Origin: Candidatus Dormiibacterota bacterium
GTDB taxonomy: Bacteria; Acidobacteriota; Terriglobia; Terriglobales; Acidobacteriaceae
Reading direction: 5' to 3'
DNA length: 64,000 nucleotides
Assembly: GCA_035566655.1 (NCBI GenBank)
Contig: DATMQT010000102.1
Location: 4,188 to 68,187, forward strand
Shown: piece by piece, positions 3,425 to 51,335 of the stretch
Position numbering within the stretch: position 1 is the stretch's first letter
Layout: every line of letters starts with the position of its first letter
Position numbers and translations under genes: made by a program
Notes under the pieces: generated by a model
What the model was told of the DNA's origin: nothing
What the model saw: only the letters and a program-made list of their open reading frames with translations
The model's database searches: none

Positions 3425-3694
3425 GCTTGACCCGTCGCCGCACATGGAGTTGGTCCCGAGGGCCCGGCATTTGGCCGCCGCAACCCGCCGTGGTAGCCTA
3501 TGCTCGGCAGGGGAGAGGTAGCTTGGTCCGCCCATCACCCCTGGCCAGAGCATCCCTTCATGCCCGACCCCGCCCGGCCACTTCGACCCGCCGCATCCCC
3601 TTCATCTGGGGGAACTTCTAAGGATCCGGCAGAACCGGAAGAAGGGCAACTTTCCGCTCAACCTCGGGTTCAATCAAGTGTGAGCACTGCCGCC

Positions 3695-4342
3695 ATGAAC
3701 CGGAGCGTTCTGACGGCCTCGCTGGGGGCGCGCCCGGCAGGCGCCTTGCAACCAGTGATGGCCGGCGCCGAAAGCTATACCGACGCTGAAGTCATGCTGC
3801 GGGTGAAGGCGGGGGACCAATCCGCTTTCGACTTTCTGGTGCAGAAGTATCGCCGGCCGCTGGTGAGCTTCATGTACCGGATGGCGCGCAACACGGCCGC
3901 GGCGGAGGATCTGGCGCAGGAAGTTTTTCTGCGCGTGTACCGCTCGCGCCAGAGCTACGAAGCCAGCGCCAAGTTCACCACCTGGCTGTATCGCATTGCG
4001 ACCAACCTGGCGGTCAATCACGCGCGCGACACCCGCAAGGAGCGGCCGGAAGTGACGGTCAGCCTGGACGAGCCGGATGAGGAAACGGGCACGACCATGG
4101 ACGTGGCCGATGGCACGATCACGGTCGAAGAAGCCCTGGTGCGGCGGGAACGGATGGCGGCGATCCGGAGCAGAGTAGAGGGATTGCCGGAACGCCAGCG
4201 GCTGGCAGTGATCATGCACAAGTACCAGCAGATGGATTACAAGCAGATTTCCGAGGTATTGAAGTTGAGTGAGTCGGCGACGAAATCGTTGTTGTTCCGG
4301 GCCTACGAAACTTTGCGGGACCAGTTAAAAGAATTTGTGTGA
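3695..4342 (+). CDS. RNA polymerase sigma factor, ECF (sigma-70 group 4) family
   Basis: Region 2 (FDFLVQKYRRPLVSFMYRM...AEDLAQEVFLRVY) and region 4 (LPERQRLAVIMHKYQQMDYKQISEVL). Start chosen at ATG 3695; the upstream part of the track ORF is Pro/Arg-rich and unlikely to be coding. Confidence 0.85.
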   Translation: MNRSVLTASLGARPAGALQPVMAGAESYTDAEVMLRVKAGDQSAFDFLVQKYRRPLVSFMYRMARNTAAAEDLAQEVFLRVYRSRQSYEASAKFTTWLYRIATNLAVNHARDTRKERPEVTVSLDEPDEETGTTMDVADGTITVEEALVRRERMAAIRSRVEGLPERQRLAVIMHKYQQMDYKQISEVLKLSESATKSLLFRAYETLRDQLKEFV

Positions 4343-4380
4343 GATCCTTCGCGAGCAAAGAGCGCTCGCTCAGGATGACA
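4343..4380 (-). repeat. dispersed TGTCATYC...GGAYC hairpin element, inverted copy
   Basis: The reverse complement reads tgtcatcctgagcgagcgctctttgctcgcgaaggatc, with an internal stem gcgagc/gctcgc plus atcct/aggat. Related copies lie at 7139, 46560, 48048 and 49838. Confidence 0.65.
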
Positions 4381-4432
4381 ATTGGAATTTGGCGAAGTGA
4401 CAGGCGAAGAGAGAATTGAGGGGAGCACGGTT

Positions 4433-4921
4433 ATGAAGTGCGGAGAGATTCACGATAGGATGCCGGACCTGGCGTCCGGGTTGATGGGAATGACGCCGGA
4501 GATCGGCGGACATCTGGCTGGGTGCGGCGCGTGCGCGGGAAAGCTGGAAGAATTCCGGCAGACGATGGCCTTGCTGGACGAATGGAAGGCTCCGGAGCCG
4601 TCACCGTATTTCGACGTGCGTCTACAAGCACGTCTGCGGGAAGAGATGGCCAAGCCGCAGGCGGGCTGGTTGGCCTGGTTCCGGCGTCCGGTGCTGGCAG
4701 CGGCGCTCACGGTGCTGATGGCGATTGGCTTGGGCTTGTTCCTCAGCAAGAACGGCGGTATCTACAACTCGGGCGACGACACGCTAGCGGTAGTTGAACC
4801 TCAGGGGCCGGGTACGGCGGTCAGCGATCTGCAGGCTTTGGAAAAGAATCATGATCTGTATTCCGATTTCGATTTGCTGGATGACCTGGAAGTGCAGCAC
4901 GATGTGCAGGCGAATCCATAA
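4433..4921 (+). CDS. anti-sigma factor (zf-HC2 type), single-pass membrane protein
   Basis: HLAGCGACAGK (HxxxCxxC) near the N-terminus and one TM segment (VLAAALTVLMAIGLGLFL). It lies directly downstream of the ECF sigma gene. ATG 4433 is preceded by gaggggag. Confidence 0.75.
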   Translation: MKCGEIHDRMPDLASGLMGMTPEIGGHLAGCGACAGKLEEFRQTMALLDEWKAPEPSPYFDVRLQARLREEMAKPQAGWLAWFRRPVLAAALTVLMAIGLGLFLSKNGGIYNSGDDTLAVVEPQGPGTAVSDLQALEKNHDLYSDFDLLDDLEVQHDVQANP

Positions 4922-4974: not shown

Positions 4975-5682
4975 ATGCGGCGGGCAAATTTCATGACGGG
5001 ATGGGTGGCCACGGCTGTGCTGTGGGCAGCGACCGTTGTGGTGTCTCTGTCTACCTGCCTGGCGCAGCCCGGCACATACCCCTCCGTGCAGGCACGGCAG
5101 TCATCGCCGAGTCAAAATCACCCGAATCAAAGTCATCCGAATCAGAGTCATCCGAATCAGAGTCCTCCGAATCAGAGTCGTCCAAATCAGAATCATCAGC
5201 AGCCGCCGAACCCTGGACCAGGACATGCCGGCGACTGGCTGCGCCGCTACAAGAATCTGCCGCCGGGCGAGCAGGAACGCGCGCTCCAGAGGGATCCCGC
5301 ATTCCGCCACTTGTCTCCGGCGCAGCAGCAACAGTTGCGGCAACGGCTGCAGCATTTCTCAGGGCTGCCACCGCAGCAGCAGCAGCGCGTGCTGAATCGC
5401 ATGGAAACCTGGGAACATCTGACGCCGGGGCAGAAGGAGCAGGCCCGTCAGGTTCACGGCCAGTTACAGCAACTTCCTCCCGAGAGGCAGGCCATGGTGA
5501 AAACCGCGGTGCACCATCTGAGCGCGATGCCTCCCGAACAACGGGAACAGATTATCAATTCTGAGCGGTTTAAGGGCATGTTCTCGCCGCAGGAGCGTGA
5601 AATCATGCGTGGAGCTTCGAGGTTGCCGCTCGCGCCACCGGAGAATGGCAAGCCCGGAGAAACGCCGGCGCCCGAACAGTAG
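4975..5682 (+). CDS. DUF3106-like Gln/Pro-rich secreted protein (third gene of the ECF sigma/anti-sigma operon)
   Basis: Signal-like N-terminus and repeated helical motifs (LSPAQQQQLRQRL, LPPQQQQRVLNRM, LTPGQKEQARQV, MPPEQREQIINSERFK), as in DUF3106 proteins. Confidence 0.7.
   Translation: MRRANFMTGWVATAVLWAATVVVSLSTCLAQPGTYPSVQARQSSPSQNHPNQSHPNQSHPNQSPPNQSRPNQNHQQPPNPGPGHAGDWLRRYKNLPPGEQERALQRDPAFRHLSPAQQQQLRQRLQHFSGLPPQQQQRVLNRMETWEHLTPGQKEQARQVHGQLQQLPPERQAMVKTAVHHLSAMPPEQREQIINSERFKGMFSPQEREIMRGASRLPLAPPENGKPGETPAPEQ
5110..5199 (+). repeat. 6 x 15-nt in-frame tandem repeat (pentapeptide SQNHP/NQSHP/NQSHP/NQSPP/NQSRP/NQNHQ)
   Basis: Units aatcaRagtcatccg read directly from the sequence, inside the DUF3106-like CDS. 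Confidence 0.9.
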
Positions 5683-6572: not shown

Positions 6573-9500
6573 TCAGTGAAAATCGTGCGAAACCGTCTCA
6601 GCTTTAGTGACGAACAGTGGCTGCACGCGTTCCGCTTTGACCGAGATCACGTTGTCCTGATTTTGCAGAATTCCTTCGATGGCCAGAAACCGCTCTGAGG
6701 CCAGCAGCAGGCGGTGGCGGTGAAAAAGATCAGGCGTGATGATCGCGTTAGCCACTCCGGTTTCATCTTCCAGACTGACAAACACGAAACCTTTCGCGGT
6801 CCCGGGACGCTGGCGGGTAATGACGCAACCTCCGATGCGAAGACGCTTGCCATTGGGCAAGTCGCGGAGTTCGCTGGCGCGGCGAATGCCCATGGCCTTG
6901 AGCCATTCGCGACGGTAGGCCATGGGATGCGGGCCGACGGTGAGGCCAGTGCCGTGGAAGTCGGCAACCAGCCGCTCTTCGTGGTTCATGGGTTGAAGCG
7001 GCGAAGGCGAATCGGGCTCCGGCAACTGTTCCAGCAGCGGCCCGGAACCGCGGACGGCACGTTCCACTTGCCAGAGCGCGTCGCGGCGGTGGAACTTCGA
7101 GTCCCGAGTCTCGAGTCCCAAGTCCCGAGTAAAACTTTTGTCATTCCAACCCCCGAGCGAATGCGAGGGGCTGAGGAATCTCGGGACTCGGGACTCGGGA
7201 CTCGCCACTGCATTCAGCGCTCCGATCTCCGCCAGTGTAGTGAGTTCGTCCTTGCGCAGTTCAGAAACGCGGCGGGTGAGATCGTGAATAGAACTGAACG
7301 GAGCAAGCATGCGCTCACGTACCAGAGCCTGAGCAGCTTCCTCGCGCAGCCCACGAACGTAACGCAACCCCACACGCAGCGCTGTCCCGCCGGCAGTACT
7401 GGTTTTACTGGCCACTGGCCACTGACCACTGACCACTGCTTCTAAACTGCAATTCCACTCCGACCGCATCACGTCCACGGGCAGCATTTTCAATCCATGA
7501 CGCTGCGCATCCTTGGTGATGGTCGCCGGAGAATAAAATCCCATGGGCTGGTTGTTGAGCAGGGCGGCGGTAAACGCGGCCAGGTAATGGCATTTCAAAA
7601 ACGCGCTGGCATAAGCGATGAGAGCGAAGCTGGCGGCGTGCGATTCAGGAAATCCATAGAGAGCAAACGAAGTAATCGAGAGAATAATTTTCTCCTGCGC
7701 CTCCTGGGGAATTCCATTCTGCGTCATGCCGGCGCGCAACTTGGCTTCGATTTCCTTCATGCGTGCCTGCGAGCGCTTGAGGCCCATGGCGCGGCGCAGG
7801 TCTTCCGCTTCGCCGCCGGTGAAGTTGGCAGCGATCATGGCCAGACGAAGCAGTTGTTCCTGAAAAAGCGGCACGCCGAGCGTGCGTTTAAGCACCGGTT
7901 CTAGCGAAGGATGCGGATACGTTACCTCTTCTCTTCCCTGGCGGCGTTGCAAAAAAGGGTTGACCATCTGGCCGACGATCGGCCCCGGCCGGATAATCGC
8001 GACCTGCACCACGATGTCATAAAAATGTTTCGGACGCAGGCGCGGCAGGCACGACATCTGCGCGCGGCTTTCCACCTGGAACAAACCCACGGTGTCGGCC
8101 TGCTGCAGCGCGGAATAGACCGCGGGATCATCCTGCGGAAGATGCGCCAGATCAACCTCTTCGTGATAATGCTCGCGAATGAGTTCGATGGAATCCTTGA
8201 GCACGGCCATCATTCCCAGGCCGAGCAGGTCGACTTTGATGATGCCCATGTCGGCGCAATCTTCTTTGTCCCACTGCACCACGACGCGGCCGGGCATGGA
8301 AGCGGGTTCGAGCGGAACGACCGAATCGAGTTGTCCCTGGCAGATGACCATGCCCCCGGAGTGCTGGCCGAGATGGCGCGGCATGTCCTGCACGGCGAGG
8401 CACAGCTCGTAATACTTGCGCAGGCGCGGATGTTTGAGGTCGAGCCCGGCATCGCGGAAGCGGCGGTCGAGCGCGTCGTTCTCGTCGCGGAATTCCCAGG
8501 TAGCGACTGCGGCGGAAATTTTGCCGAGCGTTTCCGGATCGAGGCCTAGAGCCTTGCCCATTTCGCGCGCCGCCATGCGGTTGCGATAAGTAATGACGTT
8601 CGCCGTCATGGCCGCGCCGCGCTCGCCATAGCGCCGGTAAACATATTGAATAACTTTTTCGCGTTCGTCGCCGCTGGGCAGGTCGAGATCGATGTCGGGC
8701 CATTCACTGCGCTCCTCAGAAAGAAAACGCTCAAAGAGAAGCTCCATGCTGACGGGATCGACGGCCGTGATGCCGAGCGAATAACAGACGGCACTGTTGG
8801 CGGCCGAGCCGCGTCCCTGCAGCAGAATGTTTTGCTCGCGGCAGAAGCGGACCAGGTCCCACACGATGAGAAAATATCCCTCAAGTTTTAGTTTTCCGAT
8901 GAGTGCGAGTTCACGCTCAATCTGGCGCCGGGCGCGGGTTTGCATGTCAGACGCAGCGCGCCCATAACGCTGCCGAAAACCTTCCCATGCACGCTCGCGC
9001 AGGAAACAGTTCATGGTTTCGCCTTCGGGAACAGGATAACGGGGAAACTCGTAGCCGAGGTCGTTAAGCGTAAATTCCAGGCGCGAAGAAAGTTCCGAGG
9101 TATTGCTGATGGCCTCAGGAAGGTCGGCGAAGAGCTGCTGCATTTCTTTTGATGATTTCAGGTGGCGCTCGGAGTTGCGCGTTAATAAACGTCCGGCTGT
9201 TGACAAGGTACGGTGATGACGGATGGCAGTAAATGCGTCGCAGAGTTCGCGATCTTTCGCGGCGGCGTAGCATGCGCCGTTGGTTGCAAGCAGAGGGAGA
9301 TTAAGTGAGCCAGCGATTGCGATGGCGGCGCGATTGCGAGTTTCTTCTTCGCGATGAAAATGCCGCTGCAATTCGATGTACACATTGCCACGGCCAAAGA
9401 TTCCAACTAATCGCTCGACTTGCTGGCGAGCTTCTTCGATGCCGCTATGTTGCAAAGCAGCGGCCAGCGGCCCATCCGCGCCGCCGGTTAGACAGATTAG

Positions 9501-9860
9501 GCCGTCCGCATGTTCTTCCAATTGTTCTTGGCAAATTGCACCTTCGCCTTTTTCCGCGCGCAACTTCATTTTGGTGATCAGGCGGCAGAGATTTTGATAG
9601 CCGGCGCGGGAGGAAACGAGGAGAGGAAGACGATATTTTTGTGACGAAGAAAGATTAGCTCTGACTTCCGCGCCGATGTGCGCCTTGATCCCAAGTTTCT
9701 TTGCTGCCAGGTGAAAGCGCGGCGCACCGTAGACCCCGTCGGTATCGAGCAATGCCATGGCGGGCATATTGAGCCGGGCGCAGGCTGTCATCAGATCCTC
9801 AGGCAGGGAAGAACCTTCGAGGAAGCTGAAAGCGGAACGGGTGTGAAGCTCGGTGTACAT
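6573..9860 (-). CDS. dnaE2: error-prone DNA polymerase III alpha-like subunit DnaE2 (ImuC)
   Basis: 1095 aa with N-terminal PHP motif MYTELHTRSAFSFLEGSS. Length and synteny with imuA-imuB fit. Carries two in-frame repeat insertions (see findings). Confidence 0.95.
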   Translation of the reverse strand: MYTELHTRSAFSFLEGSSLPEDLMTACARLNMPAMALLDTDGVYGAPRFHLAAKKLGIKAHIGAEVRANLSSSQKYRLPLLVSSRAGYQNLCRLITKMKLRAEKGEGAICQEQLEEHADGLICLTGGADGPLAAALQHSGIEEARQQVERLVGIFGRGNVYIELQRHFHREEETRNRAAIAIAGSLNLPLLATNGACYAAAKDRELCDAFTAIRHHRTLSTAGRLLTRNSERHLKSSKEMQQLFADLPEAISNTSELSSRLEFTLNDLGYEFPRYPVPEGETMNCFLRERAWEGFRQRYGRAASDMQTRARRQIERELALIGKLKLEGYFLIVWDLVRFCREQNILLQGRGSAANSAVCYSLGITAVDPVSMELLFERFLSEERSEWPDIDLDLPSGDEREKVIQYVYRRYGERGAAMTANVITYRNRMAAREMGKALGLDPETLGKISAAVATWEFRDENDALDRRFRDAGLDLKHPRLRKYYELCLAVQDMPRHLGQHSGGMVICQGQLDSVVPLEPASMPGRVVVQWDKEDCADMGIIKVDLLGLGMMAVLKDSIELIREHYHEEVDLAHLPQDDPAVYSALQQADTVGLFQVESRAQMSCLPRLRPKHFYDIVVQVAIIRPGPIVGQMVNPFLQRRQGREEVTYPHPSLEPVLKRTLGVPLFQEQLLRLAMIAANFTGGEAEDLRRAMGLKRSQARMKEIEAKLRAGMTQNGIPQEAQEKIILSITSFALYGFPESHAASFALIAYASAFLKCHYLAAFTAALLNNQPMGFYSPATITKDAQRHGLKMLPVDVMRSEWNCSLEAVVSGQWPVASKTSTAGGTALRVGLRYVRGLREEAAQALVRERMLAPFSSIHDLTRRVSELRKDELTTLAEIGALNAVASPESRVPRFLSPSHSLGGWNDKSFTRDLGLETRDSKFHRRDALWQVERAVRGSGPLLEQLPEPDSPSPLQPMNHEERLVADFHGTGLTVGPHPMAYRREWLKAMGIRRASELRDLPNGKRLRIGGCVITRQRPGTAKGFVFVSLEDETGVANAIITPDLFHRHRLLLASERFLAIEGILQNQDNVISVKAERVQPLFVTKAETVSHDFH
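7098..7204. repeat. composite insertion inside dnaE2: heptamer arms (cgagtcc x4 / ctcggga x3) around a TGTCATTCC...GGAATC element
   Basis: Left arm 7098-7130, right arm 7180-7204 (its reverse complement), nested dispersed element 7139-7180. Translated in-frame as ...SPESRVPRFLSPSHSLGGWNDKSFTRDLGLETRDSKF... Confidence 0.85.
7408..7439. repeat. tandem heptamer array (ctggcca ctggcca ctgacca ctgacca) inside dnaE2
   Basis: Same CAGTGRY word as the intergenic hairpins at 9861 and 18848. Translated as VSGQWPVAS. Confidence 0.8.
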
Positions 9861-9934
9861 CAGTGATCAGTGGTCAGTGGCCAGGAAAAGCGGAAGATTT
9901 TAACTAGCCACTGATCACTGGCCACTGGCCACTG
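9861..9934. repeat. heptamer-word hairpin (CAGTGRY) filling the imuB-dnaE2 intercistronic gap
   Basis: Left arm 9861-9884 cagtgatcagtggtcagtggccag, loop of 22 nt, right arm 9907-9934. About 19/24 complementary by hand alignment. TTTT follows on the plus strand. Confidence 0.85.
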
Positions 9935-9937
9935 TTT

Positions 9938-11515
9938 TCAGTCATAACTTCCTTCCACATACCAGCCTCCGCCGAGCAGATTGTGCACAAGGCGGTAGAG
10001 CGCGACACTGTCTGCATTTTGCAAAGCGATGTCCCACTCATCGCGCGCCCAGGCCTCCCGTTCCCACCAATCGCCGGAACTGCGCCAGGGGCCTGCCTTC
10101 CAGAGCACACTGCCCTGTACTTCTTTTTTCTTCGTACAGACCACGCGCGCCAGTTCCCCATTTTCCAGAGTCACGGTGACCCGCAGCGGCGGACGGAACA
10201 TGCGCAGGGCTGTGACTGATTGTTCTTCGCCGGAACTTTTTTGCCGATTTACTTTTGAATCTGCCTCAGGCATGAAGCGCCGCATGCGGAAGGCTTCAAC
10301 CCGATGCGTGTCCAGCAACTCCAGCGAGCCCACGCGGGCTTCGCCGACCAGTCCGGCAATGCGCGCCAGCGTGAGTTCCAGTTTTTCAGGTTCCGGCGAC
10401 GGAGGCTGAAACAGCCCGCCCTGAGCCGATCGCGGCCGCGCCGGTTCCGCCGCGAGATGAATTTTCAGGATGGGCGCGCCCGGCGGATGCGCGTTCAAAT
10501 CCAATTGCAACAGCTTAAGAAAAAGTTTGGCATCAAGCATGGGAATAGGCAGACGAAGCGTTCGATGAAACCGCTTTGGCCGGGATTGCTGATCGTTGAT
10601 TGCTGATTGTTGATTGAACGACGAGAAGCTTTCGAGTTCCAGCGTGAGCCGCAACTCCTGCGTGTTCAGAGCACGCGAAGCCAATCGTGCACAAATCTGC
10701 TCGAGCAAACGATTCAGCAGAAAGGCCAACGGCTCCAGCAACACAATGGGATATTCCAACTCGACGGCTTCTTCAAATACCGCCGGCGCTTCCACAGGAA
10801 CCAGCGTGCGGGAAGCCGCGCCCCGCGCCAGTTGCTGCAAGCGCAAGCCTTCCTGTCCCAGACGCTCGCTCAGCGCAACTTCCGGCAGCGCAGCCAGAGC
10901 GCGCAGATTGCGAATGCCCCAGCGCTCGAGAGTTGCCAGCAGGCGCGCTGATTCTTTCTGCTCATCATTGTCCTCACTTGTCCCGGTAAACAAAACTTCT
11001 ACCGGCAACGATCCCAGAGACTCGCCTTCTTCCCCCGGCGGAATCACGGTCACACCTGAAATGCCGTGGGCGGCGAGCGCGGCGGCATCGGGATACGAAG
11101 CAACGGCAACGTTCACATCAAGTCCAAGGTCTGCGGCACGGCGGAAAATGTCACAAGCAATTTCCGGCAGCGCACCAAAAAGAGATTCCATACCGGTCAG
11201 GTCAAGAATTGCCGTGTCGGCTGCGGCATCTTCCACGCACGGCGAGAAGGACTGCGCACAATCCAGAAGGGCGGCGTGTGCCGCGGATTCCTGTAGCAAA
11301 GAACGCGGACGCAGCGTCAATTCCGAACACAGTTCCGCCTGGGCTTTCGTCATACCGGGTGCGATGCCCACGCGGCCTGCGCTCTCATTCACGGCAAAAA
11401 CTTTTTCCAGCGGAGGCTTGCCTTCGAAAATGGCCACGGCCCGCGCGCGCAACTCCGGCTCGACGCGAAAAACCGCGGCCACGGGAAAATTCGGCACGAA
11501 GATGCAGGCAAACAT
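9938..11515 (-). CDS. imuB: ImuB, Y-family polymerase-like protein of the imuA-imuB-dnaE2 cassette
   Basis: N-terminus MFACIFVPNFPVAAVFRVEPELR... is typical of ImuB. Position between imuA and dnaE2. Start taken at ATG 11515. Confidence 0.9.
   Translation of the reverse strand: MFACIFVPNFPVAAVFRVEPELRARAVAIFEGKPPLEKVFAVNESAGRVGIAPGMTKAQAELCSELTLRPRSLLQESAAHAALLDCAQSFSPCVEDAAADTAILDLTGMESLFGALPEIACDIFRRAADLGLDVNVAVASYPDAAALAAHGISGVTVIPPGEEGESLGSLPVEVLFTGTSEDNDEQKESARLLATLERWGIRNLRALAALPEVALSERLGQEGLRLQQLARGAASRTLVPVEAPAVFEEAVELEYPIVLLEPLAFLLNRLLEQICARLASRALNTQELRLTLELESFSSFNQQSAINDQQSRPKRFHRTLRLPIPMLDAKLFLKLLQLDLNAHPPGAPILKIHLAAEPARPRSAQGGLFQPPSPEPEKLELTLARIAGLVGEARVGSLELLDTHRVEAFRMRRFMPEADSKVNRQKSSGEEQSVTALRMFRPPLRVTVTLENGELARVVCTKKKEVQGSVLWKAGPWRSSGDWWEREAWARDEWDIALQNADSVALYRLVHNLLGGGWYVEGSYD
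10584..10618. repeat. tandem heptamer array (gattgct gatcgtt gattgct gattgtt gattgaa) inside imuB
   Basis: Read directly. Translated as NQQSAINDQQS. Confidence 0.75.
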
Positions 11516-11537
11516 GAAGCAGTACCCAATAGAGCCG

Positions 11538-11622
11538 GGTTTCAAAGTTTCAAGGTTTCAAGGTTTCAAAAAATAATTTGCTCAACTTTGAAACCTTGAG
11601 ACATTGAAACTTTGAAACCTTG
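11538..11622. repeat. octamer-word hairpin (GTTTCAAR) at the imuA-imuB junction
   Basis: Left arm 11538-11570, right arm 11586-11622 (its reverse complement). The right arm forms the last codons of imuA (KTRFQSFNVSRFQS). TTTTTT follows on the plus strand. Confidence 0.85.
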
Positions 11623-12448
11623 TTTTTTCAGCGGAGCGAACCGGCTTGCGCTCCAGCCGGGAGCGCACCAACTCCGCCGTGATTTCCATTTCGGTTAGCA
11701 ATTGCGCGTGTGTGGGCGGCGCCGGGAATTGAGAGTTCGTGGATTCTTTTATCCACTTTCCTTGCGGCCCCAGCTTGATTAATAAGGAAGAGCAACTCCC
11801 CGCGATGGACTGCCGCTCAATCGCGAGCAGCACGGTGGGCGTATGCTCCACCGCGCGGCGGAAACGAAACCACATAGTCAACGGGATATGGCGCGCCGTC
11901 TGCGGCGGCAGATCGCCGAGATCGAGGGCGATCAATCCAAAGCCTCCGCTTTCGAGCAGCAGGTCCGCCGCGCGCAGTAGTTGTTCCAAGCACTTCTGCG
12001 GAGAACTTTCTCCGCAGCGCACCCACAGCAACCGCTCCAACTCGACCCCTGCGGCTGTGGCGGACTGCGGATCGAGAGTATCGCTGGCGTCCACCACCAC
12101 GCAGCATTCTCCGCGTCGTGTGGCCGCGGCCAGCGCGGCCAGCAGCAACGTGGTGCGCCCGGAAGAGGCCGGACCGCAAATTTCTGTCAGGCAGCCGCGC
12201 GGCAGGCCTCCAGTAAGCGCATCCATCTCGGCAATGCCGCTGGAGACCATTTCTGGCGCAGGCCGAACCGCCAACCGCGAAGCTGGGGTAACGCCTGCCA
12301 GTCTCGCATCTTTGAATGTCCCAGGAATGAACACCCCTGTAGAAATGGCAGGGACAACTCGTTGCGGCGGCCGCCCCTCGGCCACATCTTCATCAAAAGC
12401 AAAAGGGCGGCCCTGGGCCGCCGAAGTGGAAACCACTGCGGAAGACAT
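11582..12448 (-). CDS. imuA: ImuA, RecA/SulA-like protein of the mutagenesis cassette
   Basis: Start at ATG 12448 (MSSAVVS...). Degenerate P-loop region GGLPRGCLTEICGPASSGRTTLLLAALA. The upstream 153 codons of the track ORF are Arg/Trp-rich, overlap the end of the peptidase gene, and are rejected. Confidence 0.85.
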   Translation of the reverse strand: MSSAVVSTSAAQGRPFAFDEDVAEGRPPQRVVPAISTGVFIPGTFKDARLAGVTPASRLAVRPAPEMVSSGIAEMDALTGGLPRGCLTEICGPASSGRTTLLLAALAAATRRGECCVVVDASDTLDPQSATAAGVELERLLWVRCGESSPQKCLEQLLRAADLLLESGGFGLIALDLGDLPPQTARHIPLTMWFRFRRAVEHTPTVLLAIERQSIAGSCSSLLIKLGPQGKWIKESTNSQFPAPPTHAQLLTEMEITAELVRSRLERKPVRSAEKTRFQSFNVSRFQS

Positions 12449-14953: not shown

Positions 14954-17845
14954 CTAGCCCGTGTTATGCAATCCTGCCGCAATACCGTTGATGGTCGCGC
15001 CCAGCGGATACTCGAGTTTCGCCAAGTCCTCCCCGCGCTGTTTGCGCCGCAAAAGCTCGACCTGGATCAAGCTCATCGGATCCACATAGGGATTGCGGAG
15101 GTGAATGGAGCGCGCCAGCACCCGGTTGCGGGCCAGCAGCTCGCGTTGACCAGAGATGCGCAAAATCATTTGCCGCGACCGCAGAAACTCCTCTTCAAGC
15201 ATAGTGAAGACGCGCGTGCGCAACCCCGCATTCTTTACCAGCCCCGAATAAACCCGAGCAATGTGAAAGTCAGCCTTGGCCATGCCGAGCTCGACGTTGC
15301 GCACCAGGTCTGAGAAGAGGGCGAATTGTTTTAACATCTGGCGCAACAACTGCTCGTGCGCCCTTCCCTTCCCTGCAAAACTATGTAGACCCTGGCCCAC
15401 TCCGTACCAGGCAGGCACGGCATGGCGGCTCTGCATCCACCCGAACACCCACGGGATGGCGCGCAGATCCTCCAGACGGCGGCCTTTGGTCCGGCGCGAT
15501 GGCCGCGAGCCGATGCGCGCGGCATCCAATTCAAGAATCGGCGTAGCCTGCTCAAAGTATTCCAGCACTTCGGCATTCTCGGCGATGTCGCGGCGGTACA
15601 CGCGGTAAGCCTCCGCCGACATTTCCTCCATGGCCTCTTCCCATCGTGCCTGATCCTTTACCTTTGCCTGCCGAATGGTCGATCGAGTAAGCGCTTCCAA
15701 ACTGGCGGCAATCATCAGTTCCAGGTTCCACTCCGCCAGCACGGCATCCGCATATTTCCAGTTGAGGACTTCCCCTTGTTCAGTGATGCGGATTCGTCCA
15801 GAAAAGCATCCCTCAGGCTGTGCGAGGATTGCCGCATGCGTAGGCCCGCCGCCGCGCCCCACGGTCCCGCCGCGCCCATGAAACAGTCGCAGCCTCACTC
15901 CACATTCTTGCGCTGCTCCATTCAGTTCCCGGTGCGCCTTGTACAGCTCCCAAGTGCTGGTCAGCATTCCTCCATCCTTATTGGAGTCGGAGTAGCCCAG
16001 CATCACCTCTTGCCAGCGTCCCCAGGAATCGAGCAGCGGCTGGTACTCCGGATGCCGCCACAGACGCCGCATCGCGCCGCCCGCCGCGCGCAAAGAATCG
16101 ATGGACTCAAACAGCGGCACCGGCATCAGGCCCGGGTCTACTAATGATGCGCTATCGCCAGCGCCATCCAGACCGACTCCACACGACTTCGCCAGCCGGA
16201 CCACGTTCAGCACATCTTCCTCAGACTCCGCACCACTGATGATGTACTGACGGATCGACTGCGCCGGATAAGTGCGCTTGAGTTCCTGGACCGTGCGGAA
16301 TGTCTCGACTAACTCCTGCGTCTGAGCAGAAACAGTTTCGCTAGTGTGAGGCAAAGCAGCCCCTACAGCCAGCTCCGGGCCGGTTTTTCTTAATTCGTCC
16401 TTTCTCAGCTTGGTCTTTCTTAGGTCCGCGTCTCTTAGTCCGATCTTGTTCAGGTCGATCTTCTTTGTACCGATTTCTTGCAGAACTGCCGCATGCACGC
16501 GGGCATGCTGGCGGACATCAAGAACCTGGAGGTGGAAACCAAAAGTTCGGAGTTGCAACAACAAGGGATCGACAAAAGCCTCCGCCAGCCGTTGCCCGCG
16601 ATTCGCCATCAGGCTTGACCGCAGCAGAACCAGATCGGATTCAAATTCCGCCGCGTCCACATACGAATCCTGGACCTTCACGCCCTCCCGGCTGCGCTGC
16701 AAGCGGTGAAGCACATAAGAAAGCAGGCGCCGGTAAGGCTCCACTGTGTTGTCCGGCCCCCAGAGCATGGCGGCTTCGGGCATCGAGCCCCTGTATTGCG
16801 CCAGGCGTGAAACAATTTCCGCCGAAGCGTTTACCTGAAGCAAGGACGAACTCAGGCAATCGCTCAGGTACTCGACTCCGCGAACGTATTCGCGAAGAAT
16901 CACCGTCCGCGCCAGTTCCAGCGCATCCTTCACACACTCCGGCTTGACCAGCGGGTTGCCATCGCGATCGCCACCAATCCAGGACCCGAAGCTCAGCAGG
17001 TTCGGCAAATCGACCACGTTGAGAACGGTGCCGTAAACTGCCTCCACCACTTCCGCCACTTCGTCGTAAATACGCGGCAGCGTTTCAAACAGCGAAAGAC
17101 GAAAGTAGCGCAGTCCCATGCGGATCTCGTCGTTCACCGTGGGCTTGGTCTGCCGCACTTCGTCGGTCTGCCAGAGCGACGCAATCTCAGCATGGATGAC
17201 TTGTTCGCATCGCAGGGCCTCACCCACGGGAAGAGGAAGCCGATCCAGCCGCGCCAATTGCTCAGCGATGCGGCGGCGTTTCAGCAAAACCGTCTGCCGT
17301 GCCACTTCCGTGGGATGGGCGGTGAACACTGGGGTCACCGCGATCTGGCGAAGGGCCGCCAGAGCCCCGTCGGCGGAGATCCCCGCTTCCTTCATGCGCA
17401 GCAGCGTCCCGTGAAAAGATCCGGGTAGGGGCGCGCGTTGCCGGTTCAACTCTCCGGCACGGCGTCGGCGCTTGCGATGGTTGGTCTCCGCCAGATTCGT
17501 CAGTTCGAAATAGATGGCAAACGCTTTCGTGACCTGGTAAGCGCGTGCCAGATCCATTTTCGAAATCATCGCCTGAGCCTTGGCCATGAGTTCCCCGCGA
17601 GCGCCGGCCGCAGGACTATACCAGACCCGCTCGCGATGCCGGATCATCAGTCGCCGCAACTCTTCGACGGTATCGAATAACTCCTGGCCCACTTGCTCCA
17701 CCAGCACCCGCCCCAGCAGGGCGCCCAGCGAGCGCACGTCCCGCCGCAGGGGTTGATCCTTGGCGGAGTCGTCCGATTGCGCCGTAAGCTCGGACAAACG
17801 GGCCTTTTGATCGTCCGCTTTCCACAATGGTTTGGATCGAGTCAT
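14954..17845 (-). CDS. ppc: phosphoenolpyruvate carboxylase
   Basis: 963 aa. Motifs VFTAHPTE, GYSDSNKDGG, FHGRGGTVGRGGGP, and C-terminal INGIAAGLHNTG. Confidence 0.95.
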   Translation of the reverse strand: MTRSKPLWKADDQKARLSELTAQSDDSAKDQPLRRDVRSLGALLGRVLVEQVGQELFDTVEELRRLMIRHRERVWYSPAAGARGELMAKAQAMISKMDLARAYQVTKAFAIYFELTNLAETNHRKRRRRAGELNRQRAPLPGSFHGTLLRMKEAGISADGALAALRQIAVTPVFTAHPTEVARQTVLLKRRRIAEQLARLDRLPLPVGEALRCEQVIHAEIASLWQTDEVRQTKPTVNDEIRMGLRYFRLSLFETLPRIYDEVAEVVEAVYGTVLNVVDLPNLLSFGSWIGGDRDGNPLVKPECVKDALELARTVILREYVRGVEYLSDCLSSSLLQVNASAEIVSRLAQYRGSMPEAAMLWGPDNTVEPYRRLLSYVLHRLQRSREGVKVQDSYVDAAEFESDLVLLRSSLMANRGQRLAEAFVDPLLLQLRTFGFHLQVLDVRQHARVHAAVLQEIGTKKIDLNKIGLRDADLRKTKLRKDELRKTGPELAVGAALPHTSETVSAQTQELVETFRTVQELKRTYPAQSIRQYIISGAESEEDVLNVVRLAKSCGVGLDGAGDSASLVDPGLMPVPLFESIDSLRAAGGAMRRLWRHPEYQPLLDSWGRWQEVMLGYSDSNKDGGMLTSTWELYKAHRELNGAAQECGVRLRLFHGRGGTVGRGGGPTHAAILAQPEGCFSGRIRITEQGEVLNWKYADAVLAEWNLELMIAASLEALTRSTIRQAKVKDQARWEEAMEEMSAEAYRVYRRDIAENAEVLEYFEQATPILELDAARIGSRPSRRTKGRRLEDLRAIPWVFGWMQSRHAVPAWYGVGQGLHSFAGKGRAHEQLLRQMLKQFALFSDLVRNVELGMAKADFHIARVYSGLVKNAGLRTRVFTMLEEEFLRSRQMILRISGQRELLARNRVLARSIHLRNPYVDPMSLIQVELLRRKQRGEDLAKLEYPLGATINGIAAGLHNTG
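16386..16475. repeat. 6 x 15-nt in-frame tandem repeat inside ppc
   Basis: Units tttcttaattcgtcc / tttctcagcttggtc / tttcttaggtccgcg / tctcttagtccgatc / ttgttcaggtcgatc / ttctttgtaccgatt. Encoded peptide KKIDLNKIGLRDADLRKTKLRKDELRKTG. Confidence 0.85.
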
Positions 17846-18728: not shown

Positions 18729-18847
18729 TTATGGTGGCGTGGTCGCGGATCCAGAGCCCTACGTCGGAGCCGGGTTCTGCATAGAATGTATGTTGGAAAT
18801 GTTGCGAGAATGTTTCCCGCGTGTTAACGAATGATGAATTTCGGAAG

Positions 18848-18945
18848 GCAGTGGCCAGTGGTCAGTGATCAGTGGCCAGAGAAAACCGTACCTATGGTCG
18901 CAGGTGGGACTGACTGACCACTGACCACTAACCACTGACCACTGC
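18848..18945. repeat. heptamer-word hairpin (CAGTGRY) between phoU and the response-regulator gene
   Basis: Left arm 18848-18879, 30-nt loop, right arm 18910-18945. About 27/32 complementary by hand alignment. TTTT follows on the plus strand. Confidence 0.9.
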
Positions 18946-23531: not shown

Positions 23532-23566
23532 CCTAAGACCTACAACCTAAGACCTGAGACCCGAAT
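23532..23566. repeat. tandem heptamer array (cctaaga cctacaa cctaaga cctgaga cccgaat)
   Basis: Fills the 41-nt gap between the convergent MATE and phosphatase stop codons. Confidence 0.8.
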
Positions 23567-25977: not shown

Positions 25978-26056
25978 CCAGTTCTTAGTTCTCAGTTCCC
26001 AGTTCGAAGCCACCCAAGGTTTGACCGAGAACTGAGAACTGGGAACTGAGAACTGG
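25978..26056. repeat. heptamer-word hairpin (AGTTCYY) in a divergent 5' region
   Basis: Left arm 25978-26005, 21-nt loop, right arm 26027-26056. The right arm ends 6 nt before ATG 26063. Confidence 0.85.
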
Positions 26057-29377: not shown

Positions 29378-29378
29378 G

Positions 29379-29452
29379 GCAGTGGTCAATGGCCAGTGGC
29401 CGGTAAAAACGCGTTCGAACCTTTAGGACTGGTCACCGATCACCGGCCACGG
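29379..29452. repeat. degenerate heptamer-word hairpin (CAGTGGY / CGGTGAY)
   Basis: Left arm 29379-29403, right arm 29429-29452, only about 15/24 complementary. Fills the gap between the proline dehydrogenase stop and the next ATG. Confidence 0.6.
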
Positions 29453-29460
29453 ATTACTAC

Positions 29461-30642
29461 ATGCTCATCAAACTGACTCTTTCCATATATCTGACCTTCG
29501 GCGTTGCGCTGTGGGCGCAGAACCCGCCGCAACCGCAGGCCCAGTCCCAAGAGCCGATCGGCTACAAGTCTGCCGCGGATGCGGAGCAGAAAAAAACTCT
29601 GCTGCTGAAAGATTTTCAGCCTAAGTCCATGCTGCACGCGCCGGAGCACAACATCGACCGCGCCAAGTTTTACGTGATCGACGTCCATAATCACACGAAC
29701 GACGCTCAGGGGATCGACGACCACATGCCGCCGGCACGCGTCGTCGAGATCATGGATAAAACTAACGTCAAGACCGTCGTGATCCTGACTGGAATGTGGG
29801 GCGACAAGCTGCAAAAAGTGATCGACGAGATGGTCAAGCCCTATCCCCGGCGCTTCATCGTCTTCGAGCAGATTGACTGGAGCAAGATCGACGACCCGAA
29901 CTTCAGCCAGGAGATGGTGGCACAGCTCGATGACTCGGTCGCCCGCGGCGCACGCGGCTTGAAGCAGCTGAAAGATCTCGGGCTAAGCATTCGCGACAAG
30001 TCGGGAAAGCTAGTCGCAGTTGATGATCCGCGCCTTGATCCCATCTGGGAGGAGTGCGGGCGGCTCGGCATTCCAGTTTCCATTCATGTCACCGATCCCG
30101 AAGCGTTCTTTCATCCCATCGACAATACTAACGAGCGTTATGAGGAACTGACCGAGCATCCGGACTGGAGTTTCTACGGCCCGCAGTTTCCTACGAAAGA
30201 ATCGATCCTGGCGGCGCGCGACAGAATGTTCGCCAAACATCCTCACACAACGTTCGTAGCGCTGCACATGGCGAACTGGCCTGAGAATCTCGACTACGTT
30301 TCGCACCTGCTGGATACTCTGCCGAACGTGATGGTCGAATTCGGAGCGCGCCAGGCCGAACTCGGACGCCAGCCCCGCCGCGCCCGCGAGTTCTTTGTCA
30401 AGTATCAGGACCGCATCATGTTCGGCACCGACAACGGCATGGACGAAGCCATGTACCGCAACCACTTCCGCTGGCTCGAAACCGCCGACGAATATTTTGA
30501 TTACTGGGGATATCCCGGGCAGGGGCGGTGGAAAATCTATGGGTTGGAGCTTCCTGACGCAGTTCTCGAGAAGATTTATCACAAGAATGCGGAGCGGATT
30601 TTCGGGCAGTTCCGGAGCGGGAAAACCGTCCGCGCAAAATAA
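29461..30642 (+). CDS. amidohydrolase-family (TIM-barrel metal-dependent hydrolase) protein, secreted
   Basis: Signal peptide, VIDVHNH metal-binding motif near the N-terminus, and later MFGTDNG. Confidence 0.8.
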   Translation: MLIKLTLSIYLTFGVALWAQNPPQPQAQSQEPIGYKSAADAEQKKTLLLKDFQPKSMLHAPEHNIDRAKFYVIDVHNHTNDAQGIDDHMPPARVVEIMDKTNVKTVVILTGMWGDKLQKVIDEMVKPYPRRFIVFEQIDWSKIDDPNFSQEMVAQLDDSVARGARGLKQLKDLGLSIRDKSGKLVAVDDPRLDPIWEECGRLGIPVSIHVTDPEAFFHPIDNTNERYEELTEHPDWSFYGPQFPTKESILAARDRMFAKHPHTTFVALHMANWPENLDYVSHLLDTLPNVMVEFGARQAELGRQPRRAREFFVKYQDRIMFGTDNGMDEAMYRNHFRWLETADEYFDYWGYPGQGRWKIYGLELPDAVLEKIYHKNAERIFGQFRSGKTVRAK

Positions 30643-30704: not shown

Positions 30705-31121
30705 ATGAAGCAAGCCCCGCAGAAACCTACCGCGTCGGAGCTGGAAATCCTTCGCGTTCTCTGGACCCGCGGCCCGTCCACGGTGCGCGAAGTACACGAC
30801 TCGCTGAACGAAAAACGGGCCATGGGCTACACCAGCGTGCTGAAGTTCCTGCAAATAATGACGGCAAAAGGCACGGTGCGGCGAAACGAAACCCAGAGGG
30901 CGCACGTCTATGAAGCATGCCTGCCGGCCGAGCAAACCAAGCGTCAGCTTGCCGGGGACATGCTGCAGCGCGTCTTCGAAGGCTCCGCCAGCCAGCTCAT
31001 GATGCATGCCCTGGCCGGCCGCAAAGCTTCGCGCGAAGAGATTGAAGAACTACGCCGCTTGCTGAATGAGCAAGAAAAGGAAGAACAAGAAATGGACGAA
31101 CACAAAAGGAGCCGGCGATGA
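30705..31121 (+). CDS. BlaI/MecI/CopY-family transcriptional repressor
   Basis: N-terminal winged helix, SELEILRVLWTRGPSTVREVHDSL...GYTSVLKFLQIMTAKG. Overlaps the next gene by 4 nt (ATGA). Confidence 0.9.
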   Translation: MKQAPQKPTASELEILRVLWTRGPSTVREVHDSLNEKRAMGYTSVLKFLQIMTAKGTVRRNETQRAHVYEACLPAEQTKRQLAGDMLQRVFEGSASQLMMHALAGRKASREEIEELRRLLNEQEKEEQEMDEHKRSRR

Positions 31122-38495: not shown

Positions 38496-38984
38496 ATGAA
38501 AACAAGGACTCCCCTTCTTGTCCTCGCGATCCTTGTCCCCGCGATCTTTGTTCTGGCGATCTTTGTCCTGGCGAGTTGGCCACTCGATCTTGCCACTGCG
38601 CAAGACAAGCCCGACACGACCTCAGCGAAGATTCTGGCGTTGGAGGACAAATGGAACGCGGCTTACAAGCGCGGCGACATTGCCACCATGGAATCTTTGC
38701 TGGCCGATAATTTCATTATCACGCTGGAGGACGGCAGCACCTTCAGCAAGTCTGGCTACCTCGCACACAACGGCGACCCGACCGTCCACATTGAGACGAC
38801 GGAAGGGTCGGGTCTCAGCGTCCGCATGCACGGCAACACCGCCGTCGTGACCGGTGCCTATCACGAAAAAGGCACCTCCAAGGGAAAGCCTTACGAATAC
38901 CACGACCGTTTCACCGATGTCTGGATGAACCTGAACGGGAAGTGGCAGGTGATCGTTTCGCACTACAGCATTCCTTCCAATTGA
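38496..38984 (+). CDS. NTF2-like (DUF4440/SnoaL-like) secreted protein
   Basis: ILALEDKWNAAYKRGDIATMESLLADNF... and ...WQVIVSHYS are typical of DUF4440. Start at ATG 38496. The hydrophobic leader contains a 15-nt tandem repeat. Confidence 0.75.
   Translation: MKTRTPLLVLAILVPAIFVLAIFVLASWPLDLATAQDKPDTTSAKILALEDKWNAAYKRGDIATMESLLADNFIITLEDGSTFSKSGYLAHNGDPTVHIETTEGSGLSVRMHGNTAVVTGAYHEKGTSKGKPYEYHDRFTDVWMNLNGKWQVIVSHYSIPSN
38517..38576. repeat. 4 x 15-nt in-frame tandem repeat inside the signal/TM segment
   Basis: cttgtcctcgcgatc / cttgtccccgcgatc / tttgttctggcgatc / tttgtcctggcgagt, encoding LVLAI LVPAI FVLAI FVLAS. Confidence 0.85.
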
Positions 38985-48047: not shown

Positions 48048-48094
48048 TGTCATTCCGACGCGCGAACGAAGCGAGGCAGGGGGAATCTGCTTCC
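48048..48094 (+). repeat. dispersed TGTCATTCC...GGAATC element, upstream of the GH16 gene
   Basis: tgtcattccgacgcgcgaacgaagcgaggcagggggaatctgcttcc. It is 42/47 identical to the copy at 49866-49912. Confidence 0.8.
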
Positions 48095-49837: not shown

Positions 49838-49912
49838 GTCATTGAGCGAAGCGAGACAAAACCCCTGTCATTCCGATACGCGAGCGAAGCGAGGCAGGAG
49901 GAATCCGCTTCC
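49838..49912 (+). repeat. dispersed element: partial copy plus full TGTCATTCC...GGAATC copy, downstream of the GH16 gene
   Basis: gtcattgagcgaagcgagacaaaacccc, followed by tgtcattccgatacgcgagcgaagcgaggcaggaggaatccgcttcc. Confidence 0.8.
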
Positions 49913-51144: not shown

Positions 51145-51300
51145 GAAGCTCTTAGCCATTAGCTCTTAGCTTCATGCCTCATTGCATCGAAGTTGTTTTT
51201 TCTTGCTTGTGCAAGTCTTGTGCTTGTTCGCGTTCCAACTTTGAGTCTGGCTGGCTGTAGTTCGGTTGGAGCTAAGAGCTAAAGGCTAAAAGCTACAAGC
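51145..51300. repeat. heptamer-word hairpin (AGCTCTT/AGCCATT) with a long (about 95-nt) interior
   Basis: cttagccattagctcttagc (51151-51170) against gctaagagctaaaggctaaa (51271-51290), 18/20 complementary. Confidence 0.8.
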
Positions 51301-51335
51301 TGAAGTCCAGTGACATCGGTAACTCCGCCGTCGCG

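Follow-up and report, generated by a model that had tools for sequence, protein, structure and literature searches.

A composite palindromic repeat in the reading frame of acidobacterial dnaE2, a probable tolerated passenger of the error-prone polymerase

The dnaE2 (imuC) gene of an acidobacterium raises the question of how a gene for an error-prone DNA polymerase can harbour, within its reading frame, a hairpin assembled from repeats of two different kinds. The gene lies on a stretch of 64,000 nucleotides (contig DATMQT010000102.1 of assembly GCA_035566655.1, positions 4,188 to 68,187; hereafter the window, with positions counted from its first letter), and a preliminary description of this stretch had pointed to a heptamer-word hairpin whose loop contains a copy of a dispersed element, proposing that the two nested repeats are either tolerated as a protein insertion or mark a polymorphic or inactivating lesion. 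Here, the insert was analyzed with regard to its anatomy, its occurrence in orthologues, the selection acting on its host gene and the distribution of its parts. Taken together, the results make it likely that a composite palindromic repeat occupies a permissive loop of DnaE2 and is carried along as a translated, tolerated passenger in the form of a disordered loop of 36 residues.

Tandem Repeats Finder, folding and translation confirmed that a heptamer hairpin with the dispersed core in its loop lies within the dnaE2 frame (Table 1). DnaE2 reads ...IGALNAVA-SPESRVPRFLSPSHSLGGWNDKSFTRDLGLETRDSK-FHRRDALWQVE across the whole structure, without a stop and with the frame unbroken, and the addition of about 36 residues that had been placed between IGALNAV and HRRDALWQVE corresponds to residues S887 to K922. 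The two heptamer arrays pair as inverted repeats over 25-30 nt with 87-92% complementarity in a repeat search, and the hairpin loop holds the core, GTCATTCC...GGAATC, accompanied by an A-rich spacer that is found on the GTCAT side whichever way the core is oriented. When a stretch of 123 nt was folded as RNA, the predicted energy was -68.4 kcal/mol (z = -6.4, with none of 200 shuffles reaching this value), and folding as DNA gave -32.7 kcal/mol (z = -5.1). Rfam searches of the whole window at gathering scores detected two tRNAs and nothing else, while permissive E-values for positions 7040-7260 returned only generic microRNA-hairpin matches far below threshold, none of the known RNA families fitting the element. 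The element is open in four of the six reading frames, so that its survival in frame is easy.

The orthologue comparison bears out that the junction is contiguous in other DnaE2 proteins, as the preliminary description had stated. In cluster representatives at the 50% identity level, limited to the 118 that span the junction (many others being fragments), the spacer between GAL(N) and (H)RRxALW comprised 4 residues in 59 and at most 6 in 77. Likewise, among 80 species-level Acidobacteriota genomes the junction was 27 nt or shorter in 29 and 60 nt or longer in 40, and a heptamer tract was present in 21 of the 41 long junctions of the Acidobacteriota genome set as compared to 0 of 820 shuffles. 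The alignment to Thermus aquaticus Pol III alpha (2HPI) ends at GALDAFGD and restarts past the insert. Since orthologues free of the repeats have a junction of 4-6 residues, with no homologous segment in its place, the segment is specific to the lineage; a profile search for distant DnaE2 proteins returned the same clade and added little diversity. Structure prediction, which had been suggested as a check, gave a disordered loop: in the AlphaFold model (mean predicted local distance difference test (pLDDT) score 79.6, predicted template modelling score 0.76), which Foldseek matched to M. tuberculosis DnaE1 and Taq Pol III alpha with TM values of 0.70-0.71, residues 888-921 and 811-824 form the longest low-confidence segments, both with pLDDT below 50. 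No secondary structure is predicted for residues 888-921, and helices 870-878 and 925-936 lie on either side, which by these predictions places the insert in a loop that the fold can accommodate. The DnaE2 representatives P0133, P0140, P0142, P0161 and P0173 carry low-complexity inserts of 60-171 residues with unrelated sequence at this GALN/RRxALW junction, which indicates that this loop is a general insertion hot spot of DnaE2, beyond the repeat family of the window.

The host gene encodes an intact polymerase. Its domain order is that of a C-family polymerase (PHP, DNA_pol3_alpha, finger, HHH_6 and OB in Pfam), its catalytic PDIDLD motif is complete and does not vary, and the nearest proteins, with 82-98% identity, are annotated as error-prone DNA polymerases and stem from metagenome-assembled genomes (MAGs) of 'Candidatus Sulfotelmatobacter' and Acidobacteriaceae (Terriglobales). 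As imuB and imuA lie immediately upstream, dnaE2 is part of an imuA-imuB-dnaE2 'mutasome' cassette. A comparison of the window gene with ten insert-bearing relatives, variable loops excluded, yielded a ratio of non-synonymous to synonymous substitution rates (dN/dS) of 0.06-0.09 at dS of 0.6-1.0. Moreover, 117 of 118 distinct junctions for which both flanks were available are in frame and free of stops, as compared to at most one in three expected to keep the frame without selection. The sole broken junction, in the relative L024 (4650-4800), shows a one-base frameshift in the left heptamer arm; this may be a real off-state or, plausibly in view of its origin from the long-read MAG series Microflora Danica, an assembly error in the repeat. 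Strong purifying selection combined with 117 in-frame junctions argues for an old, tolerated passenger and against a lesion, in line with the tolerance as a protein insertion proposed at the outset. A dead gene, or a segment taken out of the RNA or the protein, would not be expected to keep its frame open in this manner; intron- or intein-like removal was accordingly rejected, as was a pseudogene on the basis of dN/dS.

In the inserts themselves, hypervariability is seen between lineages. An insert at this junction is present, in at least four unrelated forms, in every one of the 120 closest relatives (Terriglobales, 'Ca. Sulfotelmatobacter'-like), and the form found in the window, arm plus RFLRPSHSLGGRNDK plus arm (form A), occurs in 81 of them, while 16 have the core in reverse orientation, reading VIPTPERKRGAEES (form B), one has the antisense core in another frame, DSSAPRVRSGVGMTK (form a), 11 hold an unrelated hairpin family with the peptide PRRHGDTEK...SVSPCLRGE (form C) and 12 have other forms, chiefly short and arm-only. 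Arm-only, core-only and combined forms are all present among relatives at this junction. A neighbour-joining tree built on the conserved columns calls for no fewer than 11 switches between forms A and B; the members of the closest A/B pair are 3.8% apart over the rest of the protein, and a relative 98% identical to the window protein has kept the insert with two amino-acid changes. Since the core is read in three ways across the relatives, its peptide is not conserved as a peptide, and substitutions in the core are mostly non-synonymous (S/R/C, W/R, G/V). Other Acidobacteriota have, at the same junction, hairpins of different heptamer words (CCAGTTT, CCAATTG, AGATTGC, AAGTCCA). The words of the two arms change together, GAGTCCC/GGGACTC in the window as compared to GAGTACC/GGTACTC in the relative L001, with at least six parallel complementary changes, and insert lengths include 99, 120 and 141 nt, i.e., steps of 21 nt or three heptamers.

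The junction is one of three insertion hot spots in DnaE2, the others being a loop around residue 70 in the PHP domain (site 1) and residues 811-826 in HHH_6 (site 2). Site 2 corresponds to the tip of a beta-hairpin, which comprises 35 residues in the window as compared to a baseline of 22 (about 13 additional residues) and is gapped against Taq Pol III alpha; the window retains a remnant there (Table 1), and relatives carry the full arm-core-arm unit. At site 1, the relatives L002 (2720-2833), L007 (2747-2860), L010 (2720-2830) and L033 (2720-2833) carry a 55-58-nt GTCATCCT...AGGATC element followed about 30 nt further on by an inverted 25-nt GTCATTCCGAGCGGAGCGAGGAATC element, a heterodimer of repetitive extragenic palindromic sequences (REPs) with the in-frame peptide PVILSGASASRSEA..SKDPY...IPRSARNDK. 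In some lineages a third repeat family, with arms CCACGGAGACACGGAGA and TCTCCGTGTCTCCGTGG and the peptide PRRHGDTEK ... SVSPCLRGE, occupies all three loops (L012, L014, L015, L020, L030, L031 and L058 at the dnaE2 junction described above; proteins P0005-P0008).

The core belongs to a dispersed family. The pattern GTCATTCC...GGAAT was found three times in the window as compared to 0.11 expected, the two other copies lying between genes and lacking heptamer arms. A scan of metagenome contigs with a 41-mer pattern allowing four free positions gave at least 125 matches in at least 120 stretches; among the 125 matches listed, 50 lie in dnaE2 and 75 elsewhere. The cores outside dnaE2 represent at least 58 distinct flank contexts. 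Among the matches listed, only 10 of 63 copies outside dnaE2 fall within long open reading frames, the rest being mostly intergenic, often 5-120 nt past a stop codon (30 of 52 distances after a stop were at most 123 nt). Most of these 10 long reading frames look spurious on inspection; the copy in L124 is situated upstream of where a sugar transporter probably starts, and that in L095 lies in imuA. The 5' flank caAAa.CcTT is conserved at 58 unrelated sites and appears as AAAACCTTT in the dnaE2 copies, the dispersed unit extending to caAAa.CcTT on its 5' side and to a T on its 3' side. Sibling classes share the frame GTCATYCY-GAGCG...CGA-RGRATC and differ in the sequence of their internal hairpins; for the 58-nt class, compensatory changes were seen in 11 of the 20 pairs predicted in this hairpin. 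A related 37-nt copy of the GTCATCCT...AGGATC class lies on the minus strand of the window (4343-4379), in the 40-nt gap between the plus-strand open reading frames 3500-4342 and 4382-4921.

Heptamer arrays are likewise abundant and likewise occur alone, 19 tracts being present in the window as compared to 1.15 expected from triplet shuffles. Coreless heptamer hairpins lie at 9859-9934, 18847-18944 and 25980-26055. Two-armed hairpins between genes, each with a word of its own (CAGTGGC, AGTTCTC, AGCTCTT), were noted at the latter two positions and at 51147-51301 and 29378-29470, and single arrays directly past stop codons at 23532, 33946, 52323, 52994, 54558 and 60407; CAGT/GAGT or AGCT is part of almost every word. 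Among the matches listed, a heptamer tract lies within 60 nt of the core in 45 of 49 dnaE2 copies and in 22 of 71 others, as compared to 0 of 245 shuffled flanks, and tracts on both sides of the core were seen in 25 of 49 dnaE2 copies and 4 of 71 elsewhere. This co-occurrence makes 'nested' a fair description of two repeat families, each of which also exists on its own, as had been proposed.

Table 1. Position, strand and basis of the features in the window
Feature	Position	Strand	Basis
In-frame insertion, composite palindromic repeat; codons S887-K922, 36 aa, 108 nt	7095-7202	minus	translation and orthologue comparison
Gene-distal (3') arm, heptamer array CGAGTCC x4.7 (+ strand), peptide TRDLGLETRDS	7098-7130	minus	Tandem Repeats Finder
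A-rich spacer TAAAACTTTT, always on the GTCAT side of the core	7130-7139	plus	flank profile
41-nt TGTC-tagged REP-like stem-loop core GTCATTCCAACCCCCGAGCGAATGCGAGGGGCTGAGGAATC, antisense to the gene, peptide RFLSPSHSLGGWND	7140-7180	plus	pattern search, predicted two-tier hairpin
Gene-proximal (5') arm, heptamer array CTCGGGA x3.6 (+ strand), peptide (A)SPESRVP	7180-7204	minus	Tandem Repeats Finder
Site 2 remnant, single heptamer array ACTGNCC x4.6 with CAGTAAAACC spacer, peptide VVSGQWPVASKTS	7407-7438	minus	Tandem Repeats Finder, alignment
dnaE2 (imuC), host gene, coding sequence of 1095 aa	6573-9860	minus	open reading frame and translation, Pfam, AlphaFold
Heptamer hairpin (CAGTGGC type), filling the whole 77-nt imuB-dnaE2 spacer up to the dnaE2 ATG	9859-9934		Tandem Repeats Finder
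imuB, Y-family-like, IMS domain	9938-11545	minus	Pfam
In-frame heptamer tract in imuB, GATTGCT type, peptide NQQSAINDQQS	10584-10616	minus	
Octamer-array hairpin GGTTTCAA x4 ... TTGAAACC x4 at the imuA/imuB junction	11538-11622		Tandem Repeats Finder
imuA, RecA/SulA-like, first gene of the cassette, start MSSAVV	11582-12448	minus	Pfam RecA match, open reading frame
Intergenic copy of the core family, about 50 nt past a stop codon, without heptamer arms	48049-48087	plus	pattern search
Intergenic copy of the core family, about 40 nt past a stop codon, without heptamer arms	49867-49905	plus	pattern search

Repeats extend over the whole cassette, and of the heptamer tracts in the 64-kb window, the three that are coding all lie within it. 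In distant relatives the imuB stop abuts the dnaE2 start, and 21 of 78 relatives have a heptamer tract in the imuB-dnaE2 spacer, with differing words. In the window, the hairpin in this spacer leaves no space for the usual ribosome-binding site of dnaE2. The left arm of the octamer hairpin encodes the C-terminus of ImuA (..RFQSFNVSRFQS and stop), and in the relative L095 (2856-2896) the N-terminal part of ImuA contains an in-frame core (TLSFRPPSASEGRRNL), which replaces QRVVPAISTGVFIPGTFKDARL of the window protein. Peptides resembling that of the imuB tract, INNQ(K/Q)STI, occur in the DnaE2 inserts of relatives. Phosphoenolpyruvate (PEP) carboxylase (963 aa), encoded in the same window, served as a control: among the 120 closest relatives of each protein, peptides of the REP or heptamer type were found in none of the PEP carboxylases as compared to 105 of the DnaE2 proteins, and the standard deviation of internal length was 8.7 as compared to 24.0. 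The PEP carboxylase relatives P0313-P0432 have loop inserts of 15-nt (5-aa) tandem repeats, e.g., NDPSPNDPSPNDPSP and HLEDLHLEDRHSEDRHLED, and no other repeat type; arrays of 15-nt units also occur in the window at 5107-5197, 31071-31110 and 38517-38574. The PEP carboxylase of the window (14954-17845) is 100% identical to an NCBI protein labelled 'Candidatus Dormibacteraeota bacterium' from a third-party annotation MAG, a label that is probably due to a mis-binned or mislabelled MAG, as all other evidence points to Terriglobales (Acidobacteriota).

Several observations weigh against a mere passenger. The translation of the insert is predicted from its reading frame, and the hairpin of the window is unusually perfect (z = -9 with 30 shuffles, -6.4 with 200). 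The core, with a mean p-distance of 0.08 as compared to 0.38 at four-fold degenerate sites of the same gene pairs, is about five-fold more conserved than neutral sites, which could mean function and points either to constraint at the DNA or RNA level or to ongoing conversion or re-insertion fed by the dispersed family. Furthermore, pure neutrality does not predict the concentration of repeats in the mutasome cassette, where, among the matches listed, 50 of 125 cores fall in dnaE2 and one in imuA, with 0 of 120 for PEP carboxylase. The hairpins might instead be selected cis-regulatory structures that, on the mRNA or on single-stranded DNA, throttle or time the expression of the error-prone polymerase, for instance by slowing ribosomes, by blocking coupling at the dnaE2 start or by stabilising or terminating the transcript. 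The stability of the predicted RNA fold, the covariation of the arm words, the hairpin that reaches the dnaE2 ATG where the codons of distant relatives abut, the further hairpin at the imuA/imuB junction and the enrichment of the cassette in such repeats would all be in accordance with regulation. This explanation is nevertheless rather unlikely, since only 22 of 41 related inserts fold with z of -3 or below and many have non-complementary arms, an uneven hairpin quality that argues against an indispensable structure, since the same loops hold inserts unrelated in sequence and structure, and since about one third of Acidobacteriota species have no insert. We also regard it as unlikely that the clustering is no accident of permissive loops, a suggestion based on repeats lying in frame in all three cassette genes, filling both spacers and being re-acquired or remodelled across Terriglobales; in that case the cassette may be a preferred target, e.g., by insertion of repeats at stalled forks or single-stranded DNA where mutasome proteins act, or the hairpins may have been selected as built-in brakes or switches on the polymerase, including an invertible in-frame segment.

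A contingency or isoform switch, in which slippage of 7-nt units would toggle dnaE2 off and on or inversion between the arms would toggle two isoforms of the loop, appears improbable. A 7-nt unit is not a multiple of three, so that any change other than of three units shifts the frame, one relative is indeed frameshifted within its left arm, insert lengths follow 21-nt steps, and the orientation of the core has switched repeatedly, with both orientations open. Contrarily, with 3-5 imperfect units the arrays fall short of the usual range of high-frequency slippage, and neither a long near-perfect tract nor common frameshifted alleles, as in phase-variable contingency loci, were found: the single broken junction may plausibly be a one-base assembly error. 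Both core orientations occur among relatives, the distance of 3.8% in the closest opposite pair giving no evidence of switching within a population, and no recombinase was seen among the neighbouring open reading frames scanned (imuB, imuA and a methyltransferase). Co-option of the residues themselves, e.g., as a flexible tether or interaction site in an ImuA-ImuB-DnaE2 complex, would be in line with the retention of an insert in 120 of 120 closest relatives and with its location in the clamp- and DNA-binding helix-hairpin-helix region; it is very improbable in view of DNA read in three frames or orientations, of unrelated repeats that substitute for it, of the mostly non-synonymous core substitutions and the predicted disorder, and of the many orthologues that do without any insert. 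Least credible of all is that the gene is a pseudogene or bears an inactivating lesion, or that the insert is an artefact of assembly. Misassembly is a risk with palindromic repeats, and L024 is frameshifted; the reading frame with its catalytic motifs is intact, however, dN/dS is low, several projects have yielded the same architecture in independent assemblies that number well over 100, and a relative with 98% identity carries the insert with just two amino-acid changes. Of the lesion considered in the preliminary description, the polymorphic part therefore stands, solely as hypervariability between lineages, whereas inactivation is contradicted by dN/dS, the frame and the PDIDLD motif.

For the tolerated passenger, we propose the following course of events. 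The repeat would be lodged between the helix that closes the helix-hairpin-helix domain and the one that follows, and would be transcribed and translated along with dnaE2, its peptide presumably having no function of its own. Selection on the polymerase would purge variants that break the frame or introduce a stop, and nothing else. The 7-nt units would slip, with survivors being those changes that restore the frame, typically of 21 nt, while copying from arm to arm, by template switching at the quasipalindrome or by gene conversion, would keep or restore complementarity and spread a new word through both arms. The core might be flipped by inversion between the arms or by re-insertion, and it might be homogenised, or constrained, as a member of a dispersed REP-like family.

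The orthologous junctions, which number in the hundreds and include empty junctions, arm-only, core-only and combined forms, flipped forms and those in which other repeats have taken their place, form a comparative series that makes it testable how short palindromes arise, homogenise and move without an evident transposase, and why repeats recur in replication and repair genes, DnaE2 especially, as was noted in 2013. Such inserts also inflate length variation and yield recurrent 'hypothetical' motifs (VIPTPERKRGAEES, RFLRPSHSLGGRNDK, PRRHGDTEK...CLRGE), which annotation pipelines and structure predictors should flag as repeat-derived. Moreover, 'protein-coding palindromes', once called peculiar to Rickettsia, thrive in free-living soil and peat Acidobacteriota.

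In Rickettsia, palindromic elements (RPEs) are found in frame and translated, and are compatible by prediction with fold and function of the host protein (Ogata et al. 2000 Science 290:347; 2002 Genome Res 12:808; reviewed in PMC10969869). The window resembles the RPEs described there in that a palindromic repeat lies in frame within the gene for a known protein and leaves the frame and the sequence downstream intact. RPEs are, in the same account, elements of about 100-150 bp in defined families and in the reduced genome of an obligate intracellular bacterium, whereas the host here is a free-living soil or peat acidobacterium, the window insert is a composite of two repeat kinds, and such inserts are concentrated in one operon. 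[quoted passage not shown] MITEs possess fixed terminal inverted repeats, in contrast to the arms of the window insert, which are tandem arrays with lineage-specific words. No target-site duplication was detected in filled as compared to empty junctions or in flank profiles, no longer terminal repeats were found around the core, and the complete arm-core-arm unit was not found at unrelated loci.

The arms resemble the short tandemly repeated repetitive (STRR) sequences, with words such as CCCCAGT, TTGGTCA and CAACAGT. Like the STRR and TAACTGA repeats, they consist of tandem 7-nt units, with about 2-6 per array and words containing CAGT or ACTG. In the genomes with STRR or TAACTGA repeats a single fixed word dominates, mostly in direct orientation, whereas the words of the window family (CGAGTCC, CAGTGGC, CAGTTCT, AGCTCTT, AGTACCC) vary by locus and lineage, form inverted, hairpin-forming pairs and in several cases lie in frame. 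No literature on heptanucleotide repeats in Acidobacteria, or on STRR together with heptamer, was found in our searches. The TAACTGA repeats of Beggiatoaceae and the cyanobacterial STRR are tandem 7-nt units in 2-6 copies, abundant and mostly intergenic, and the TAACTGA repeats are translatable in one orientation while the other gives stops (MacGregor 2015, PMC4679880).

The closest precedent is provided by the intragenic REPs of the GTAG- and CGTC-tagged superfamilies (Di Nocera, De Gregorio & Rocco 2013, BMC Genomics 14:522; PMC3733652). CGTC REPs are short stem-loops with an unpaired terminal tag, often CGTC 'changed to TGTC', with CCTC as another accepted variant, and a stem opening with A-T pairs at positions 1 and 2; REPs lie chiefly just downstream of open reading frames, are at times nested within other palindromes, and some fall fully within reading frames and in frame, including those of DnaE2 in Opitutus terrae (Oter_4053, residues 934-971) and Sphingomonas wittichii (Swit_1119, residues 166-246) (PMC3733652). 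Other repair genes (uvrA, uvrB, recBCD, polA) are tagged as well, sometimes as the only REP-tagged genes of a species, and the preference of REPs for DnaE2 and repair genes was raised and left without explanation (PMC3733652). Given these in-frame REPs in DnaE2 and the RPEs, the kind of phenomenon seen here was already known. The core shares the tag, beginning with (T)GTC (the T carrying 2.0 bits over 58 sites outside dnaE2), the A-T stem start, with an outer stem ATTCC...GGAAT in all collected copies, and the dispersed location past open reading frames in at least 58 contexts. REP peptides such as VIPAKAGI, SFPRKRES and CHSRESGNP resemble VIPTPER, LSFRPPSE and CHSDPRAN of the window family. 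In place of a stem of 8-9 bp and a loop of 4-5 nt, however, the core has an outer stem of 5 bp, an inner stem of 6-7 bp and an apical part of 13 nt, and in place of an unpaired tail of 3 nt with the consensus CCA its 3' flank follows the consensus C|Tc..Tt, so that it is related in design and is not filed under CGTC-1 to CGTC-4; the nearest fit is the 25-nt sibling class GTCATTCCGAGCGGAGCGAGGAATC, with a 9-bp stem containing two mismatches. Acidobacteria, to which the host belongs, are absent from the phyla listed for CGTC repeats (PMC3733652). Unlike published REPs, the core of the window is flanked by inverted heptamer arrays, and three loops have been re-invaded or remodelled across the whole order with repeated flips of orientation. 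Novel aspects of the present case are its phylum, arms built from heptamer arrays, flipping and turnover that recur at three fixed loops, and repeats spread through an entire mutasome cassette.

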